Source of the DNA: Octopus vulgaris
Taxonomy: Eukaryota
Reading direction: 5' to 3'
NCBI GenBank assembly: GCA_951406725.2
Contig: OX597815.1
Span: forward strand, 170,004,001 to 170,068,000
Length of the DNA: 64,000 bases
The first letter of the stretch is position 1. Each line of letters opens with the position of its first letter. This document shows positions 6,628 through 59,711 of this stretch, in pieces. A program made the position numbers and the translations under genes. The notes under the pieces were generated by a model. That model saw nothing but the letters and a program-made list of their open reading frames with translations. It was not told the origin of the DNA and did not search any database.

Positions 6628-7217
6628 CAGTAATCCCTCGACTATCGTGGGTGCTACGTTCCACCCCCCCCCCTGCGATGTTGCTTTGTACTGGATGGAA
6701 ATAGTGGATGCTCTGTTCGAAAATATAAGGACACAGATATTCTGTCGTATAGCCAGCTGGAAACGATGTTTCCTGAGGCTAAACAACAGTAAAAATCGTT
6801 CCCCCAAGGCAGCCACATTATGTTGGCAAATAGTCTTTACTTCAAAGAATCGTTACTGAATATCTCTCTTTGAGAGATTTAGAGATAATAATGTTTCTAT
6901 AATAATGCAGCACGGATTTTTGTCAGTGAACAGGTCGCGGATTTTAGCGACGAAAATATTTTGACAAATTAAACTTAAATGTTGCAGTGAATCGAACGGC
7001 TTTTGTGTGTTTCTTAAATGGCTTATAAACACCTTCCACGCTGCAATTGTTTTCGTTTCAGCACACGATCTCAGATCAAATTACTTGCTATGCGAGTACA
7101 TCTCCGTAATGTTTCTATTTATTTTATTATAAGTGCTAAACAACACCACGGAGGAACAGACGTGTGCTTAAATAATAAACCTCGATAGGTGAACCGCGAT
7201 ATGGAGACGGATTTCTG
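6628..7217. mobile_element. pogo/Tigger-like non-autonomous element with a nested insertion
   Basis: TA|CAGTAATCCCTCGACTATCG ... CGCGATATGGAGACGGATTTCTG|TA imperfect TIRs starting CAG. Confidence 0.55.
6905..7110 (+). repeat. Partial copy (right arm plus tail) of the palindrome-plus-tail repeat family
   Basis: Homologous to 10910-11113 and 29885-30070. Confidence 0.75.
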
Positions 7218-10754: not shown

Positions 10755-10756
<2 letters not shown>

Positions 10757-11113
10757 CAATTGCAACGTGCAAGATGTTTATAAGCCATTTAAGAACACAA
10801 AAAAACCCATTAGATTCACGTCAACATTTAAATTTAATTTGTGTCAAAATATTTTCGTCGCTTTGAAACCGCCACCTGTTCCCTGATAAAACTTCGTGCT
10901 GCATCTCAGAAGTTTTGTCAGTAAACAGGTCGCGATTTCAAAGCGACGAAAATATTTTGACACAAATTAAATTTAAATATTGAAGTGAATCTGACGGTTT
11001 TTTTGTGTGTTGTTAAATGGCTTATAAACATCTTCCATGCTACGCTGCAATTGTTTTTGTTTCAGCACACGATCTCAGATCAAGTTACTTGCTATGCAAG
11101 TACATCTCGCTAA
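10755..11113 (+). repeat. Palindrome-plus-tail repeat: ~140-bp inverted arms followed by a ~60-bp unique tail
   Basis: Arms aacaattgca...ctgataaaactt and aagttttgtcag...tgcaattgtt; tail cagcacacgatctcagatcaagttacttgctatgc. Three copies in the window. Confidence 0.8.
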
Positions 11114-11472
11114 CATATACATACATATATATATATATATGTCTCTTTTATCTTTCATTTGTTTCAGTCATTCGTCTGCGGCCATGCTGGTTCAGTGGTT
11201 TGAAGAATCTTTAGTTGAATACTCCAAATACTACATATATACATATACATACATATATATATTTGTGTATGTATGTATGCAAGTATGTATGTATTCATCA
11301 GTTTTGTTTGGCACTTTTAGATTCTACTGTCAGCTTATTCAAATCTTCATAAGTCGTGAATTTTGCTTTACTTTGATTATTGACTCCACAATCAGTAAAG
11401 GTTGGTTCTATTCTTAAAATTCTCTTGAAACACTTAAAAGAAATCCCGTAAAGACACACTCACGTACACACA

Positions 11473-14930: not shown

Positions 14931-15046
14931 TTCCCCAAGACACCTGATGAAGGCTGGAGTGTATATCAACAAGATGAGGACAAATATCCGTCAAATGTAA
15001 ATAATGTAAATAATGTGCAGAATTCCTCATCTCTTAAATATAGAAC
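14931..15046 (+). mobile_element. 5'-truncated, internally deleted copy of the hammerhead SINE (family H)
   Basis: ccccaagacacCTGATGAaggctggagtgtatatc joined directly to aacaagatgaggacaaatatccgtcaaatg; the GAAA half of the ribozyme is deleted. Confidence 0.8.
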
Positions 15047-19229: not shown

Positions 19230-20180
19230 GATCCGTGTGCATTGCATCTATGCACCGGCTTCATTATTTTTGCATTTCTATTGTTTACTCAATGTAATTT
19301 GTTCTCAGTACCCGACAATGTTGCGTAGCGGTATCTTGCATGCATTGCATATGAAGGCGGCGAGCTGGCAGAAACGTTAGCATCCGGGTGAATTGCGTAG
19401 CCGTATTTCCTCTACTGTTACGTTCTGAGTTCAAATTCCGCCGAGGTCGACTTTGCCTTTCATCCTTTCGGGTTCGATAAATTAAGTACCAGTTACACAC
19501 TGGGGTCGATATAATCGACTTAATCCGTTTGTCTGTCCTTGTTTGTCCCCTCTGTGTTTAGCCCCTTGTGGGTAGTACAGAAATAGGTATTTCGTCTGCC
19601 GTTACGCTCTGAGTTCAAATTCCGCCGAGGTCGACTTTGCCTTTCATCCTTTCGGGGTCGATAAATTAAGTACCAGTTACACACTGGTGTCGATATAATC
19701 GACTTAATCCGTTTGTCTGTCCTTGTTTGTCCTCTCTGTGTTTAGCCCCTTGTGGGTAGTAAAGAAAGGAGTATCTTGCATGCATTGCATATACACACGG
19801 CCTTATTTAGTTTTGAATTTCTATTGTACACTCTATGTAATGTGTTCTCAATGCCCATTGATGCTCTGTAGCCGTATTTTGTGTAAGTCTCAGGATTTTG
19901 GTTATCTCTTTATGAAAGTTTTATAATTGCCTAAATTTTCCATTCCTTTATTGCAGCTTATTGTAATGGATACATCGATTAAAAGAAATTTCTTTCCTTA
20001 GAAGATTTCACTGTATCTCGTCGGTTTGACTTAATTTCTGTCCGTACGGATTGGCATATCTCCATGTACGGTAACTTTGTAATTCTTTAAGATCTTTTCT
20101 GCATGTATTTAATAGTGCTGGTATAATTTCCAGTGTACGAGAGCTCCGATTCGGTCATGCCTGTATATCTGATATTTGTT
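19230..20180 (-). pseudogene. Ancient R4/Dong-like LINE relic, interrupted by the SINE dimer
   Basis: Minus-strand fragments LRTNYIE, YRHDRIGALVHWKL, DMPIRTD and LIDVSI match the motifs of the 61.6-kb relic or the clade. Confidence 0.6.
19354..19767 (+). mobile_element. SINE family B dimer (184-bp period) inside a 22-bp TSD
   Basis: TSD gtatcttgcatgcattgcatat at 19331-19352 and 19771-19792; junction gaaataggtatttcgtctgcc. Confidence 0.9.
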
Positions 20181-22213: not shown

Positions 22214-22705
22214 CTTGAGTTACCCTACGCATGGCTAATATCTCCAGAAGATACGATAGTTTGACCAAAAGAACCGGCAATTGCAAGCAAAAATAAATGT
22301 AGAAAAACAACGCATTTGACACTATCAAAAGCCACGTGGATAAGTGCTTATACTTTTCTTTCGCCATCTTACAATTTTCCATTGACATTTTTCTTGTTTA
22401 TTAGTTTCTCTCACTGGACTGCAGCCATACTGGGACACATCCTTCAAGAGTTTAGTTGAATAGATCGTCCTCAGTTCTTATTTTTAGTTCTGATTCTTAG
22501 ACTATCGATCCCTTTTGCTAAACCGCTAAGTTACAGGGACGTAAACAAACCAACACCAATTGTCAAGCAATAGTGGGTGGACAAACACAAAAACAAAGAA
22601 ACACACACACACACACACACACACGAAGAAAGAGCAGAAACCAGGAAAAAACACCGAGTAACAAGTCTTAACAACTGTTACAAAGGCGTTAGAGCGCTGG
22701 AACGT

Positions 22706-22957
22706 ATATCATTGCTATTATGTTAAACTGTCGTATGTCCATATTTGGCGAAATGCGTTGCTTTTCTACATTTATTTTTGCTTGCAATTACCGGTTCTTT
22801 TGGTCAAACTATCGTATCTCCAGCTGCTTCAGATCTCAATATATCAAAAATTGTCAAAGTGTACTACAACGGTTTGGAATGGAATGGGGAAGCAACTTTT
22901 CGTTTTCTGAAAAAGCAACGTTTTGAACTTACTACACCCTTGCATAATAGCAACGAT
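22706..22957 (+). repeat. Dispersed ~250-bp repeat of unknown class
   Basis: Colinear diverged copy at about 41440-41695. Confidence 0.75.
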
Positions 22958-27133: not shown

Positions 27134-27457
27134 AAATACACATTATCTGTATTCAACCAGAGAATCAGTAGACCAATACGTTTAGTTAATCAGCCATAAA
27201 TATCTTGAAGAAATATCTTAAGACAAAAAGTCCCTCAACATATATCAAATTAATATTCTTGTAAACTAATGTTGATTATTGCAATTTACTTCACTTTGAA
27301 AAGATTTTTAAAGGTAACATAGTGTACAAGAAAAGCTACTGCGTCGACACGGACACATTATACACAAAGATAACAGCTGGAGAAAGAAGAATCAAACAAA
27401 AGAAAGATTCTGCAGGAAAGAAAAACTGATAACGGTGTAGAAAACTTTGTGAAACTT
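27134..27457 (+). repeat. Direct repeat copy 1 (~325 bp)
   Basis: Nearly identical to 29299-29624, with only a handful of differences. Confidence 0.9.
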
Positions 27458-29298: not shown

Positions 29299-29624
29299 AA
29301 ATACACATTATCTGTATTCAACCAGAGAATCAGTAGACCAATACGTTTAGTTAATTAGCCATAAATATCTTGAAGAAATATCTTAAGACAAAAATTCCCT
29401 CAACATATATCAAATTAATATTCTTGTAAACTAATGTTGATTATTGCAATTTACTTCACTTTGAAAAGATTTTTAAAGGTAACATAGTGTACAAGAAAAA
29501 CTACTGCGTCGACACGGACACATTATACACACCAAGATAACAGCTGGAGAAAGAAGAATCAAACAAAAGAAATATTCTGCAGAAAAGAAAAACTGATAAC
29601 GGTGTAGAAAACTTTGTGAAACTT
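29299..29624 (+). repeat. Direct repeat copy 2 (~325 bp)
   Basis: Nearly identical to 27134-27457. Confidence 0.9.
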
Positions 29625-29816: not shown

Positions 29817-30070
29817 CATTGCAGCGTGGAAGGTGTTTATAAGCCATTTAAGAAAAACACAAAAACCGTTAGATTCACTTCAACAGTGAACAGGTCGCGG
29901 TCTCAAAGCGACGAAAATATTTTGGTAAATTATACGTAAATATTGAAGTGAATTTAACGGTTTTTGTGTTTTTCTTAAATGGCTTACAAAAACCTTCCAC
30001 ACTGCAATTGTTTTCGTTCCAGCACACGATCTCAGATCAGGTCTCTTGCTATGTCAGTACATATCCGTAA
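29817..30070 (+). repeat. Palindrome-plus-tail repeat, centrally deleted copy
   Basis: Homologous to 10755-11113; inner part of the left arm is missing. Confidence 0.78.
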
Positions 30071-35167: not shown

Positions 35168-36164
35168 CAAAGAGTGTTCATTAAAGATTTCCCCTGACCC
35201 ACTTCCCAAGGACTGGGATAAACGAAACTTGGAATATTTATTAGTTCTTCTCTATATAGCCACCACCAATGGTGAAACATTTCTCCCATCGCTTTATGCA
35301 GCTGTGAAGACCTCGCCTGTGGAAGTCGGTGGTTTGTGTCTGGATCCAAGACTTTACCTTGGAAATAAGTTCATCATCAGCCGAAAAGTGCTTCTCCTTC
35401 ATAAAAGACTTCATGTTTGTAAAGGGGTGGGATTCAGATGGTGTGAGGTCAGGAGAATAAAGAGAAGAGGAAGGAATTCATATTGGCAGGATGGTGCTTT
35501 CATCTGGGTAAAATACACATTGTGAACTGGGGCGTTGTCTTGGAGGAGGCGGACTCTTTTGGTCAGCATGCCGGTCGTCTCTGCCAAAAGAGCCTGGGAG
35601 CAATTGACTCGATCCTGCTTCTGAAAAGGTGTCAGCATCCAGGGAATCCATCGTACAGACAACTTCCGCAAGTGCAAATGATCGTCAATCATTTTCCCTA
35701 CACTTATCTTCACTTCTTGGGCTAGTTGCCGAATAGTTTTGCGGTGATCTTCCAAAATGGCGGCATCCACTTTATGGATGGTGTAGTCATAAATGGGGGG
35801 AATGTAGTCGTCCAGGAATAGGAGCAGTTTCCACCGATATCCGACCACATTTGAACTGGCGGTGTCAGTGCTTGACTACGTCGTATGATGGTGCATCGTC
35901 ACCATAAAGTTCTTTCATCTCATAGAAAGTCTCTTTTGGTGTACGACCTTTCAGGTATAAAAATATGATCACCGATCTGCATTCAACTGCGTCTATTATA
36001 ACACCTTAGTCCACTTTAGCAGTGATAAAAGCCAAGCAAATCCTTGTGGAAAGCTGCAATTTATAACATGACATACAGAGACATATATAATTATACCTGT
36101 ACAAGTTCCGTTTCCTGCAATAGCTGAAATTGGATCAGATGAAATATTTAATGAACACCCCACG
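35168..36164 (-). mobile_element. Decayed, internally deleted mariner element
   Basis: TA-flanked imperfect TIRs (gtgttcattaaa.atttc); transposase remnants RKLSVRWIPWML and LLQDNAPVH. Confidence 0.85.
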
Positions 36165-38075: not shown

Positions 38076-38520
<445 letters not shown>

Positions 38521-42925: not shown

Positions 42926-43151
42926 ATTTACACTCAATACAAATTACTAACATTTAGAATAAGATAAGTTTGCATTCCGAAGATTTAGAGTAAAATATCA
43001 TCAGGGCGAAAGGACATTAAGGAAAATACATGTTGACCTGTTGAGATACTCCAAAAGACTTGTCTTTTTGCCCTGAGGATATTTGCTCCCAAATCTTCAA
43101 AATGCAAACTTATTTTATTCCATATGTTTGTAATTTGTATTGAGTGTAAAT
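42926..43151. repeat. Imperfect palindrome: ~90-bp arms with a 44-bp spacer
   Basis: Arms 42926-43016 and 43061-43151, each carrying an outward-facing CTGA(T/G)GA. Confidence 0.8.
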
Positions 43152-47996: not shown

Positions 47997-48603
47997 TAAG
48001 GCGGCGAGCTGGCAGAATCGTTAGTAGGCCGGGCAAAATGCTTGGCGGTATTTCATCTGCCGTTACGTTGTGAGTTAAAATTCCGCCGAGGTCGACTTTA
48101 CCTTTCATCCTTTCGGGGTCGATAAATTAAGTACCAGTTACGCACTGGGGTCGATGTAATCGACTTAATACCTATGTCTGTCCTTGCTTATCCCCTCTAT
48201 GTTTAGCCCCTTGTGGGTAATAAAGAAATAGGTATTTCGTCTGCCGCTACGTTCTGAGTTCAATTTCCGCCGAGGTCGACTTTGCCTTTCATCCTTTCGG
48301 GGTCTATAAATTAAGTACCAGTTACGCACTGGGGTCGATGTAATCGACTTAATACCTATGTCTGTCCTTGTTTATCCCCTCTATGTTTAGCTCCTTGTGG
48401 GTAATAAAGAAATAGGTATTTCGTCTGCCACTACGTTCTGAGTTCAATTTCCGCCGAGATCGACTTTGCCTTTCATCCTTTCGGGGTCGATAAATTAAGT
48501 ACCAGTTACGCACTGGGGTCGATGTAATCGACTTAATCGGTTTATCTGTCCTTGTTTGTCCCCTCTATGTTTAGCCCCTTGTGGGTAATAAAGAAATAGG
48601 TAT
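47997..48603 (+). mobile_element. SINE family B trimer (three 184-bp units) nested in an older family B copy
   Basis: ggtat at 48047, 48231, 48415 and 48599; TSD ggtatcaactaaat at 47982-47995 and 48599-48612. Confidence 0.92.
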
Positions 48604-49900: not shown

Positions 49901-51324
49901 AGTTGTTTTGAATAATCTCGTCAAAATGACTGCCTCGATGCATGTCTCTAAAATTCGCCTGCTTTTCTTGCTGTTGGTGCTGCAGCGATATCTATTTTAT
50001 TTTTAACTAGTTATTGATAAATTCTTTCTCGGTCGAAATCGAACTGTTTGTTTTATTCAAAGAATAGCTGTGAATTTTCACGCCCATTAATTCTTTATAA
50101 CTCAACCAGAATTTCTTGTTTCAAACGTCTTTTGAAGTCGAATATTTCGTTTTCAGTTGACATTTCTGTAGTATTAGTCTCTCCATCCTACCTGTCCTTT
50201 CACTTCTGTCGCTTTATTATTGATTTTAGTAAGGATTCGGAGAGCTTTTCTCTATTTTCTATCTATGTCCATATGCTTGTTTTCCATGATGTTTGCTTAG
50301 GTTTGATATTATTATTATTATTATCTGAGTAAATCTGAGTGGGAACTCACTTTCTTTAGTAACTACAATCGCTGTTGCATATATTATTTCGTTTAGCCTT
50401 TTAATAGTGATGCCTTCCTTTGTATTCATTAGGTTTGCGATGAAATTCGTGTTTTTTTATTGTTACTGTGATTTCATTAGGTGACTCCATTCTTCATTAA
50501 TGGAAAGTTGTTTTGAATTCCTTAATTATTTCCATCACTCGATTGTCATGTTCATGGCTTCCACATTTAGAACTTCCAATGCTTAATCACCCTCATATAC
50601 ACTTTTATTTCTCTTTCTGTTGTTGAATTTCGTTTTGTTGTCGGTTAGTATATGTAGATGTTCTACAATTTTATTTTGTTTACTTTTATTTATCTTGGGT
50701 GTTATTGCACCTATAAGGGCTATATTCATTATCTATGTACCCACTGTCTCTATTTTAGTTGTTTATTTTCTGAGTGATACTTCTGTTTTCGTTAATGCAG
50801 TCTCTCTGTAAACTGTCCTCTTTCAATTGTTGAGATTCAATGTTGCTTCAGTATATTCATCCAGTTCATCTTTTGTGAGTAGAACGTGTTTCAAAATTAT
50901 GCATCTACAATCAAGACATATTCCTAACTTATACTTTTATGCACTTTCTGTTTTGTTAGTGAGACTTGAGTAAAATCCGTCTTAGATTGTCATTGATTTC
51001 CCCGGTTCCTGGTTATTTCAGTTATTTTCAGTGATACTGTGGTTAGTGATGCTGTGGTTATTTTGAATTTCTTTATTAACAATGGGATGAATGACACTGT
51101 TTTGTACAATTTTTTCACACACACAGATACACATCCATACATACACACATGTATACATACACACACACAAATATCCATCCATCCATCCATCCATCCATCC
51201 ATCCATACATACATACATACATATATATGTATATACAGGGAAAAGTAAAACAGAAACAAAGAAAATGCACACTAGGTATAAAAGTAATGAATTATTTTAT
51301 AAAAACAAAGATATATGCACATTA

Positions 51325-51732
<408 letters not shown>

Positions 51733-52093
51733 GCGTAAAAGATTTGGGGTGGTATTTAGGAGGATAAAAATAATTTAATTGTATGTATATATCTTTGTTT
51801 TTATTTTATAAAAGCCATTACTTTTATACCTATTGTGCAATTTCTTTGTTTCTTTTTACTTTTCCCTTATTTATACCACCTGTAGTCTTTTTCTTTGAGA
51901 CCTCTTTCTATTATATATATATGTATATGAGAATATGATTTTAGTAATTTCTGAAGTTAGTCGTCATCTTTTATTTGCTGCCGACTGAAACTGCGCTTGC
52001 GCGGTGTATTTGAAAAAAATATATAATATATAATATATAATGATGAGATCCGTGTTATTTTGTCTCTAAATTATATGTTAATGTTTGGCGTAC

Positions 52094-56200: not shown

Positions 56201-57094
56201 AAGAAAGATGTCTATATATCAGCACAAAAATAATATTTAATAAGTTATGTCTTCAGCGTTACAATATGCACAACATGTAAATAACGTATTATCGAAACGG
56301 ATATTACTTCTGAGATTATCTGGTATCCGTGTTTGCAATCAAAGGAAAGAATAATATACTTTATAACAACATGACCAAGCTGAGTCTTGATCAAACTTCG
56401 AAAATAAATTATTACTGTAACATGATTGGAAAAAAGGTTATTCGTACAGCCAGAAGCAGTTTCAGTATTATTGTAATATCTTTTCATAAAGAACGATGTC
56501 AAAGGAATAGCATGGCACGGAACATATATGAAAAATCAAAAAGAACGTTTATGTTATAATGTATACTTACACTAAAATTCTGAAGAGATATTGAAATATT
56601 TCAATCGAACCGTTGAGCAATTGTTGTCAACAATGAATGCCAATCGGAGATGATCTTGAATTAACCAGAAAGCATATTTGAAGTTGGCTTCACAAAAGTT
56701 GTTGGCTTCTAGGCAGCATGTATAGTTTCGGGATGAGACCAATTACATTTCAGTAATTATATACGAGATATATTATGTTTGTCGGAGTAGTTGATTACAT
56801 CATTGCCACAAGGGTGACTCATGTATATTAACTTTATGTAGACCTATTCTACTACGAGCCAATGACGAACTATCATAAATATGTATAGCAGGTTTGTCAT
56901 ATCGGTTTGTCAATGACTAAAATAAGTAGTGGGATCTTCAGCGAATTTACTTTAATTGTTCACCAGGACAGCATTTGCCTTTTGTCATACCCATGATATG
57001 TAGGTAACAAAGACTCATCATACTGAGTGCTGTTTTCGAAGAGTTAGCGCTATTAGGCTTCCACAAAAATAATAATAAGGATAAAGACAAGATT

Positions 57095-57435
57095 TACATT
57101 ATTTACATTTAACGGATATTTGTCCTCATCTTGTTTGTTGCTAACACAACGTTTCGGCTGATATACCCTCCAAACTTCACCAGGTGTCTTGGGGAAATTT
57201 CGAACCTGGGTTCTCATTCCTAAGGTATTTTTCGATGTTCTTCTTCTTCTTATTATTCAGGTCACTGCCTGGAATCGAACTCGGAATCTTGGGGTTAGTA
57301 GCCTGCGCTTTTAATCACTACGCCATATGCCCGTGGGCAATTATGGAGTGAATTTTAGGGCTTAGATTTACGGCGTAGTGGTTAAGAGCGCGGGCTACTA
57401 ACCCAAGATTCTGTTTTCCATTCCAGGCAGTGACT

Positions 57436-57490
<55 letters not shown>

Positions 57491-57675
57491 CAACAACGTC
57501 GAAAAATACCTTAGGAATGAGAACCCAAGTTCGAAATTTCCCCAAGACACCTGATGAAGGCTGGAGGATATATCAGCCAACATCTTGTGTTAACAACGAA
57601 CAAGATAGAGAACAAATATCCGTCAAATTTAAATAATGCAAATAACGTACATAATTCCTTATCTCTTAAAGATAG
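57095..57675. mobile_element. Head-to-head inverted dimer of the hammerhead SINE (family H) within one TSD
   Basis: Minus copy about 57095-57332, plus copy about 57372-57675; TSD aaagacaagatt at 57083-57094 and 57676-57687; HHRs at 57143-57188 (-) and 57546-57591 (+). Confidence 0.88.
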
Positions 57676-59711
57676 AAAGACAAGATTGTAAATTCAAACC
57701 TGGTTTTAAATATCAAAACCAATATAATGTGAAACAAAGCCGGCTCATTTTCTTCCAGCTGCTAGATTTGCTTCTTTAAACAATGAAACAGACAGTAATG
57801 AAGGAGTAATTGATGGACATGCTGGACCTACAGATGTAAGTACTTAGCTGGAGAAATGTTGGAGTTAATGATATTTATTGAGAAGCGCTTAAAATATCTT
57901 GGTAGGAATTTATAATTGACTAAAGGCAAACTTTTGATCACTAAACTGAAGCAAGTTTATTTACTTAATCAAAATTTGCAAGTGACTTGTCAAAAACGAA
58001 GCTCTAATTCAGCAACTTGCTTTATAGTAGACGGTCAACCCTGGTATTGCAATGACTTCAAACAAGTCACTAAAAAAGTCACCACAAGCACACATCAGAA
58101 AAGTCTAGGAAACGGTTTTCTTGCAACCGTATTGAAAAACAGTATTTGAATGTAAAGGTATGCGTTGCCATTTACCACTTTGTCACATGAAAAGATATAT
58201 GGTAGTATGGAAGTAGTGATTGATGCCATTTGTCAAAGGAACCCGTGTGGAGGTCCCATTGTTATTGTAATTGTATGTAAGCAGAATTTCCAAATTGATG
58301 TTGTGTCTTATGCTCGTAGAATAGTCATACTACATCAGATCATGATAGAGAATTTGTCTTGCCAGTTACGTCAGAGTTAATATATCTATCTATCATAAAT
58401 GAACAATGTCCAGTCTGCCTATTTACTTCACCCCGAAAAGATATTTATACTAAATTTCCCTATTAAACATGGTCTGATAAAAAATTTTCTTTCAGCAATG
58501 GTTTAAAGCAACTTAAGAGGATTTCTGTAACTATCTAAAACAAAAACGGCCAAATGTTATTGCAGGAAAGTTTTTGTGGTACTGTAAAGTGGGATTTAAT
58601 TGATATTGAACTGGAACAAACCATCGAGAAACTGGAATTAAACGTTTAGCATGATTTTGCTTTGGTAATGCATAAACCTTCTACCATATAATAAACTCTC
58701 TGGGTATAGAACTACAGCTGAGAACATTATCAGAGATAAAGAAATAGTCAATCACATATCGCTAAGAACACAATTCCCATATTTCATTTTTTGCATTGAT
58801 TTGCAAGATTCTTTATGTGAATTCGAATTTTGTTGTGTTTAGAGAGAGTCATTCTGCAAATATTTTTGACACGCGCAACGAAAGAGCTGTGATAAACAAA
58901 AACAAAACAAACGACTTACTGTTTAACCAAGTTAAACAAACAATCGATTAATAAGTTGGGTATTGAATCAACTGACTAATAATAATGGAGTGGAATTGAA
59001 CCAGAGCGTGTGTTATTAATATTGGCATAATTATCCTCCCTGGACACAACAAAAGTTCCATATTCTTATCTGGATTTCTTTCTTGAAAAATCTTGGTGCG
59101 GTAAAAGGTGAGCAAGTGGAACGACTTAATCAATATATTCATGCAAATGAAACATAATTCTAAGGCTTTTGAAATGAATGGCTAATGTTTGACCATTGCT
59201 AGATATAATATCGCGACGACCCGAGACTAAGTATATGAGAAAAAAATCACTATAATATATAAATCTCAATGATGTATAAATCTCTATAATGTATATTATT
59301 TGTATATTATTAAACTGTAGGTGTGCAGAGCTGAATCTATGATATAGAAGTTGGGCTACAATTAATTGTTTCGATTGATCAAGTGTATATTGTGAGTTTC
59401 GCTGCAAAGAATGAACACATTTCGGATATAACTTTATTCAACACACCTTAATTATTGATAATGTTGAGACAAAGTAAACAGACATATTTCCAAAACTACA
59501 AGTGTTAGATGTAAACCTAAAAGGCAGATTTCAAATCACATTCATCTGTCATGGAAAGAGTGTATATTTTGCTGCATTTTAAACATAACTTACGCTAAAA
59601 GCCAAAACAAAAATATATAACCCGCGCTCTCAGTAAATCATTAAAGAGGAATAATTTAGCACTAGTCTGAAACTTTACATACCTACCTACAGACGTACGT
59701 ACATATATACA

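Follow-up and report, generated by a model that had tools for sequence, protein, structure and literature searches.

Two copies of one repeat family lie head to head in the genome of Octopus vulgaris, enclosed by an exact 12-bp direct repeat. The locus raises the question of whether such a pair arrives in a single event or is built by successive ones, and which class of retroelement machinery mobilises it. It belongs to the window analysed here, a stretch of 64,000 nucleotides (GenBank assembly GCA_951406725.2, contig OX597815.1, forward-strand positions 170,004,001 to 170,068,000), to whose first letter all coordinates refer. An earlier note, made from the sequence alone, had read the pair as one insertion, by way of a hairpin or a twin-primed cDNA, of two copies pointing away from each other across a short spacer. 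The structure is genuine and old; the locus is a decayed insertion with no sign of function.

Architecture of the pair and its direct repeats

The family arms, at 57092-57327 (minus strand) and 57369-57643 (plus strand), have their 5' ends toward each other. With the upstream sequence and the 3' tail included, the features of the locus are as follows:

57083..57094, plus strand: outer 12-bp direct repeat, left copy; the likely TSD of the right element
57676..57687, plus strand: outer 12-bp direct repeat, right copy
57092..57364, minus strand: left arm, a family copy without the 3' tail, reaching 32 nt upstream of the tRNA-like head
57369..57677, plus strand: right arm, a family copy whose sequence begins 5-8 nt inside the head, with its 3' end complete
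57644..57677, plus strand: 3' tail of 32-34 nt, on the right arm only; also recovered as the loose-end consensus at 57095 from run contigs
57333..57364, minus strand: upstream family sequence, most of the supposed spacer, from run-contig consensus
57090..57097, plus strand: inner 8-bp direct repeat, left copy, sharing 5 nt with the end of the outer repeat and overlapping the 3' end of the left arm
57364..57371, plus strand: inner 8-bp direct repeat, right copy, lying where the arms meet

The head-to-head pair and its exact outer repeat, both described in the earlier note, are borne out. The repeat, AAAGACAAGATT, matches the window only at 57083-57094 and 57676-57687 with up to one mismatch allowed, and an abutting direct repeat of at least 12 nt was met at two of 19,880 random pairs outside simple repeats, with 5 nt of slack at each end (a chance of ~1 in 10,000). 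The arms overlap over ~275 nt of family sequence and differ at 26 of the 218 columns compared (12%). They are also asymmetric: the 32-34-nt 3' tail is missing from the left, and the head of the right lacks its first 5-8 nt. The sequence difference between the arms, and the presence of the junctions in other sequencing runs, rule out a palindrome made by assembly or amplification. Both repeats, the limits of the arms and the one-sided tail, like the hammerhead remnants described below, are read directly from the locus.

The supposed spacer of ~40 nt (41 nt as measured) proved not to be foreign: most of it is upstream family sequence of the left copy. In each of the four public sequencing runs compared (X1, X2, X13 and X15, of 24 listed), 68-104 contigs track the window to 57364 and then share one continuation consensus (agreement 0.69-0.85), and positions 57328-57364 are therefore the left copy's own. 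The family is thus longer than its tRNA-like part, and the arms abut. This upstream sequence (57333-57364 and beyond) is common to the family contigs and may lead to an autonomous parent.

Only positions 57365-57368 fit neither arm. These four bases equal in sequence the end of the outer repeat, and they are accounted for by a second, inner repeat: AGATTTAC occurs on the plus strand of the window only at 57090-57097 and 57364-57371, so placed that the left arm and nothing of the right lies between the two, and direct repeats of at least 8 nt were found at 65 of the 19,880 random pairs. When the left arm and one copy of AGATTTAC are subtracted, what remains is an ordinary single insertion, namely a tailed, nearly full-length right copy within a 12-bp TSD. 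That the pair shares a single TSD is not established, given this nested duplication, which is exact and encloses the left copy only. The arm junction is asymmetric and without a palindrome, so that the signature of self-priming is missing here. A candidate in which the true centre was the 12-nt palindrome of the head, with an insertion beside it, was ruled out by the family contigs that continue to 57364 and beyond.

The same four runs were interrogated for the junctions of the locus and for alternative alleles. Between 19,295 and 46,219 contigs per run match a 2-kb stretch, a figure that is not a copy number; the family is very abundant, and its contigs are, by a rough measure, far more numerous on the left than on the right arm in all four runs. 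The left flank-to-element junction is present in two runs (X1, X2) and the right junction in three (X1, X2, X15); X1 and X2 hold both outer junctions, no piece listed crosses the centre of the pair, and the contigs of X13 do not cover the junctions. X15 differs by ~6.5% in the flanks yet has the right junction in common with the window; its left-flank contig of 1,150 nt departs from the window at 57080 with 55 unplaced letters, which may carry the allele that decides between the readings below and are weighed here for none of them. X15 also lacks ~89 bp of the right flank (57844-57932). The search for an empty site, which the earlier note had suggested for other individuals or species, returned no joint that skips the element among the 15 listed of 722, and no single-copy allele in the four runs. 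A proposal that the flanks are a decayed Helitron ORF, showing continuity before insertion, was dropped: Pfam gave no family in six frames and phmmer no hit.

Anatomy of the family and signs of PLE-type mobilisation

Four copies of the family, at three loci, lie in the window. A complete copy comprises a tRNA-like head, a tract of (AAT)n/(AAC)n, what remains of a hammerhead and an end rich in A and T, and there is no long ORF in the element. Its parts, and the two copies outside the pair, are:

57260..57332, minus strand: tRNA-like head of the left arm, with A-box-like (57315-57325) and B-box-like (57272-57280) motifs
57328..57339, unstranded: 12-nt palindrome at the start of the head, belonging to the family itself; fold-back occurs here in the third copy and in contigs of three of the four runs
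57438..57498, plus strand: internal microsatellite, (AAT)n/(AAC)n, in the right arm; the left arm's version is short and of AAG type
57143..57188, minus strand: decayed minimal type I hammerhead of the left arm; it retains GAAA and the ACGT palindrome, with mutations in the first core box and in stem II
57546..57591, plus strand: decayed minimal type I hammerhead of the right arm; it retains CTGATGA and both stems (I and II) but no longer has the GAAA box
51312..51733, minus strand: third family copy, without a tail; its head palindrome is the site of a fold-back of 18 nt (51716-51733; z -5.73)
14931..15045, plus strand: fourth family copy, 5'-truncated and tailed

The box-like motifs of the head were placed in the left arm and the third copy. 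ARAGORN found no tRNA, and Rfam returned no hammerhead or tRNA, with no match at the gathering threshold and only chance-level matches when searched locally. The parts of the hammerhead are CTGATGA, one unpaired A, stem II (5 bp), GAAA, the palindrome ACGT and stem I (also 5 bp). For every core box there is at least one intact version among the four copies, no copy has all of them intact, and stems I and II of the right arm fold with z -3.27. The 32-34-nt tail is carried by the right arm and the fourth copy and is missing from the left arm and the third. An 85-bp inverted duplication (51237-51319 and 51784-51867; 87% alike) encloses the third copy, beginning at that copy's 3' end; it is apparently non-family DNA, and may have existed earlier as a palindrome or represent a copy of target DNA made at insertion. 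No TSD of more than 7 nt was found.

Several of these features are those of PLE insertions. A 5'-truncated copy lying inverted beside the 5' end and, at one end, a tail of 30-40 bp are given as typical of PLEs (PMC8557442). Inverted units flanked by TSDs of 8-10 bp are also described, which have a tail of 31 bp, palindromic junctions (for which self-priming is the published proposal) and, in one case, a verified empty site (PMC3846280). The present family has such an optional tail, of 32-34 nt and at one end only, and a minimal type I hammerhead in decayed form, laid out as are the minimal hammerheads described for PLEs (PMC4209133). A palindromic junction is lacking at this pair and is found in the third copy and in contigs of other copies. 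Insertion of PLEs within or next to copies already present is likewise reported (PMC6765202). The purified PLE protein PAc cleaves and extends both strands, with two start sites delimiting the tail; it is predicted to be a dimer, and its priming site is not homologous to the DNA that it cuts (PMC11167929).

Inverted joints recur within the family. An antisense piece is joined to a sense piece in 12 of the 15 joints listed (of 722), which demonstrates recurrence and gives no rate, the sides of each joint being only 18-29 letters long and drawn from paralogous copies. Three of these are fold-backs at the 12-nt head palindrome, represented by 5, 9, 0 and 5 contigs in X1, X2, X13 and X15, respectively; in a separate listing of 12 rows, four return to the 3' end, as expected of tandems. 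The three loci in the window include no partial head-to-tail tandem of the family. That mobilisation is of PLE type, as the earlier note had argued from the inversion, we consider very probable on anatomical grounds, because the one-arm tail, the decayed minimal hammerhead and the recurrent fold-back joints add to what inversion alone could say. Three observations count against it: none of the four hammerheads is intact, Rfam recognised neither hammerhead nor tRNA, and neither an autonomous PLE partner nor a shared 3' end was found. The family motifs had no match in metagenome, viral or genome contigs.

Other repeats of the window were recorded in passing. A second family of the same anatomy occupies 6905-7110, 10755-11116 and 29818-30070; two of its three loci are head-to-head, with a left arm that lacks a tail of ~50-60 nt, and its flanking repeats measure 8 bp (29809/30071) and 12 bp (6889/7107). 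Its hammerhead-like fold scores z -3.47 and -2.30, and its first core box, GTGAACA, is a natural C3G/G8C swap, a double change that partly restores cleavage in PAc (PMC11167929). A third family forms an inverted pair around a long (TA)n tract at 38076-38470, the minus strand of which has a minimal hammerhead, nearly intact, at ~38441. The commonest tRNA-headed repeat occurs as head-to-tail dimers and trimers (19359-19778, 48003-48603), whose later units start at unit position 50 with a 7-nt overlap. Further fold-back or inverted pairs lie at 42926-43151 (76% over 234 nt) and 22249-22819 (97% over 69 nt), and a recent direct duplication of 326 bp, 98% alike, at 27134-27457 and 29299-29624. Broken frames at 529-1516 and 35411-35875 bear a putative resemblance to mariner-type transposases.

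Origin of the head-to-head arrangement

How the tandem and inverted ends of PLEs form is described as still undefined (PMC8557442). For the present pair we give about an even chance to two successive insertions by a PLE enzyme, which would have built it within its nested 12-bp and 8-bp repeats; here and below, the relative standing of the mechanisms is a matter of judgement, not of computation. This reading is favoured because the exact inner repeat brackets the left arm only, against the random expectation given above, and because excision of that arm with one 8-mer leaves a normal single insertion. The right copy would have inserted first, by target-primed reverse transcription from a tailed RNA end, duplicating 12 bp. 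A second RNA would then have entered in the opposite orientation at the 5' junction of the first copy, through an 8-nt staggered cut whose top overhang could pair over 6 nt with the tail-less RNA end, and whose bottom overhang could pair with the RNA exactly where the left arm stops. Complementarity at that stop point is expected because the family appears, from contig consensus, to continue past 57364. The enzyme, the order of insertion and its timing are inferred.

The ages and templates of the arms bear on the same question. Polarised on the two other copies, and with one column ambiguous, derived changes number 16 in the right arm and nine in the left (p 0.23), so that the right arm looks the more diverged. 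The excess of family contigs on the left arm in all four runs, a rough measure, likewise speaks for two insertions. One non-CpG column, the ambiguous one, groups the left arm with the third copy and the right arm with the fourth, hinting that the arms were copied from different templates. Several points tell against two insertions. A separate second insertion within a few bases of the junction is unlikely without targeting, and an allele with the right copy only was not seen in the four runs. At the two head-to-head pairs of the second family in the window, an inner repeat of more than 4 nt is absent. By analogy, the inverted PLE units described in PMC3846280, one of them with a verified empty site, would speak for one flanking TSD, and priming by PAc without homology (PMC11167929) would weaken the argument from overhang pairing.

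A single PLE reaction is a serious possibility, to which we assign somewhat less than an even chance. Both target strands would be nicked and primed, and two cDNAs would meet head to head; the inner 8-bp repeat would then be a short templated copy of the left junction, produced as the cDNAs were being linked, and the 12-bp repeat the TSD of the whole unit. Such a reaction dispenses with precise re-targeting, and its product matches the unit described in the published accounts, with an inverted 5' copy, a tail of 30-40 bp at one end and a TSD of 8-10 bp (PMC8557442, PMC3846280). The activity of PAc on both strands, its two tail-defining starts and its predicted dimer (PMC11167929) are likewise in keeping with it, as are the head-to-head joints that are common in the family and present at two of the three loci of the second family. 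It requires, however, an extra template switch that copied 8 nt exactly, and the equal ages that it predicts for the arms sit uneasily with the 16:9 lean, itself not significant, and with the column that splits them.

An improbable alternative, the nearest to the earlier idea of a hairpin, is a self-primed hairpin cDNA with a 6-nt loop and a 12-bp TSD, followed by a central deletion of ~39 nt that removed the start of the right arm. Comparison with the contig consensus identifies window positions 57362-57370 as family sense sequence beside the mirror point, and self-priming has been put forward for palindromic junctions (PMC3846280); fold-backs occur at the head palindrome of the third copy and in the contigs of X1, X2 and X15 counted above, with none in X13. 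The deletion is nevertheless an additional step, that 8 bp should repeat the left junction exactly is left to coincidence (~0.3-1%), and the single template predicted conflicts with the split column. Of the original proposal, then, the pairing itself stands, and a one-event origin through a hairpin or twin-primed cDNA is not established, given the nested 8-bp repeat and the lack of a junction palindrome. In L1-type twin priming of one RNA monomer, the inverted and direct parts do not overlap; with ~275 nt of overlap between the arms, that route is excluded.

Scarcely credible, in our estimation, is a tRNA SINE mobilised by a LINE, the pair having arisen by L1-type twin priming or as chance neighbours: a head with A- and B-box-like motifs would suit it, and another tRNA-headed family (an imperfect control, with tandems of its own and a TSD at only one of five single copies examined) also shows two head-to-head adjacencies among its 22 hits in the window, but those two pairs lack an outer repeat of more than 6 nt, and the arms here overlap nearly throughout. 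The family does not begin at the tRNA start, its sequence continuing 32 nt upstream of the head in the window and further in the contigs; it retains the remnant of a hammerhead; and at its 3' end it has a tail that is unique and optional, neither poly(A) nor a simple repeat, the microsatellite being internal. The earlier statement that inverted arrangements are unusual for LINE-mobilised SINEs holds for Alu, for which one 5'-inverted insertion in 5,554 is reported (PMC2912911), as against inversion or fold-back at two of the three family loci in the window.

Relation to described elements and meaning

The family shares attributes with several described systems. Endonuclease-positive PLE units (Penelope/Poseidon and Adineta vaga Pen2a; PMC3846280, PMC8557442) are described with the same head-to-head 5' copy, one-end tail of 30-40 bp, minimal hammerhead of type I and palindromic fold-backs, and with a short flanking TSD to which the outer 12-bp repeat may correspond. 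The present family differs from them in having no ORF, in the tRNA-like Pol III head and microsatellite upstream of its hammerhead, and in the nested second duplication, which goes unmentioned in the accessible portions of those two papers. The SINE-like schistosome elements Sm-alpha and Sj-alpha (PMC6765202, PMC2770079) are reported as abundant, non-coding and built of a Pol III-type promoter that derives from a tRNA and, after it, a hammerhead, a likeness by description only; the octopus family has in addition a minimal hammerhead of PLE type, with the tail and inversion of a PLE. Animal non-LTR retrozymes (bioRxiv 10.64898/2026.07.22.740005; PMC7229834), similarly, are short non-coding elements with type I hammerheads, proposed to be non-autonomous PLE derivatives. 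They are defined in those accounts by head-to-tail tandems with complete hammerheads and by circular RNAs, whereas the copies in the window are dispersed or inverted, have a tRNA-like head, and nowhere form a tandem of at least two units with complete hammerheads. Helenus and Ajax, non-autonomous elements that captured a tRNA-derived promoter in their terminal repeat, offer an analogy only, being described as LTR elements with PBS and PPT, in contrast to the PLE features seen here (PMC10886601).

The family may be an octopus tRNA-derived SINE, of those attributed to Ohshima and Okada (1994). No tRNA-headed family with a PLE tail and inversion was found in the literature searched, whose coverage excluded Repbase, SINEBase and most subscription papers; in one survey, 893 of the 900 SINE families with recent activity are left without a classification (PMC13282606). 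The head-to-head arrangement is already known for PLEs; it is the nested duplication and the tRNA-headed family of PLE type that are modestly interesting.

We offer tentatively, as a view that may well prove wrong, that this is a very high-copy SINE-like family in which a tRNA-derived Pol III promoter has come to lie within a PLE hammerhead-and-tail module, whose partner is a PLE and not a LINE, and whose head-to-head units form by a second priming at the 5' junction that leaves nested duplications. If so, these duplications would constitute a countable, genome-wide signature of the way in which PLE inverted ends are formed. The abundance of the family would allow one-step and two-step origins to be counted from nested duplications, arm ages and single-copy alleles. 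Should elements annotated as tRNA SINEs indeed depend on PLEs, part of the 'SINE' fraction of this genome would be misassigned.
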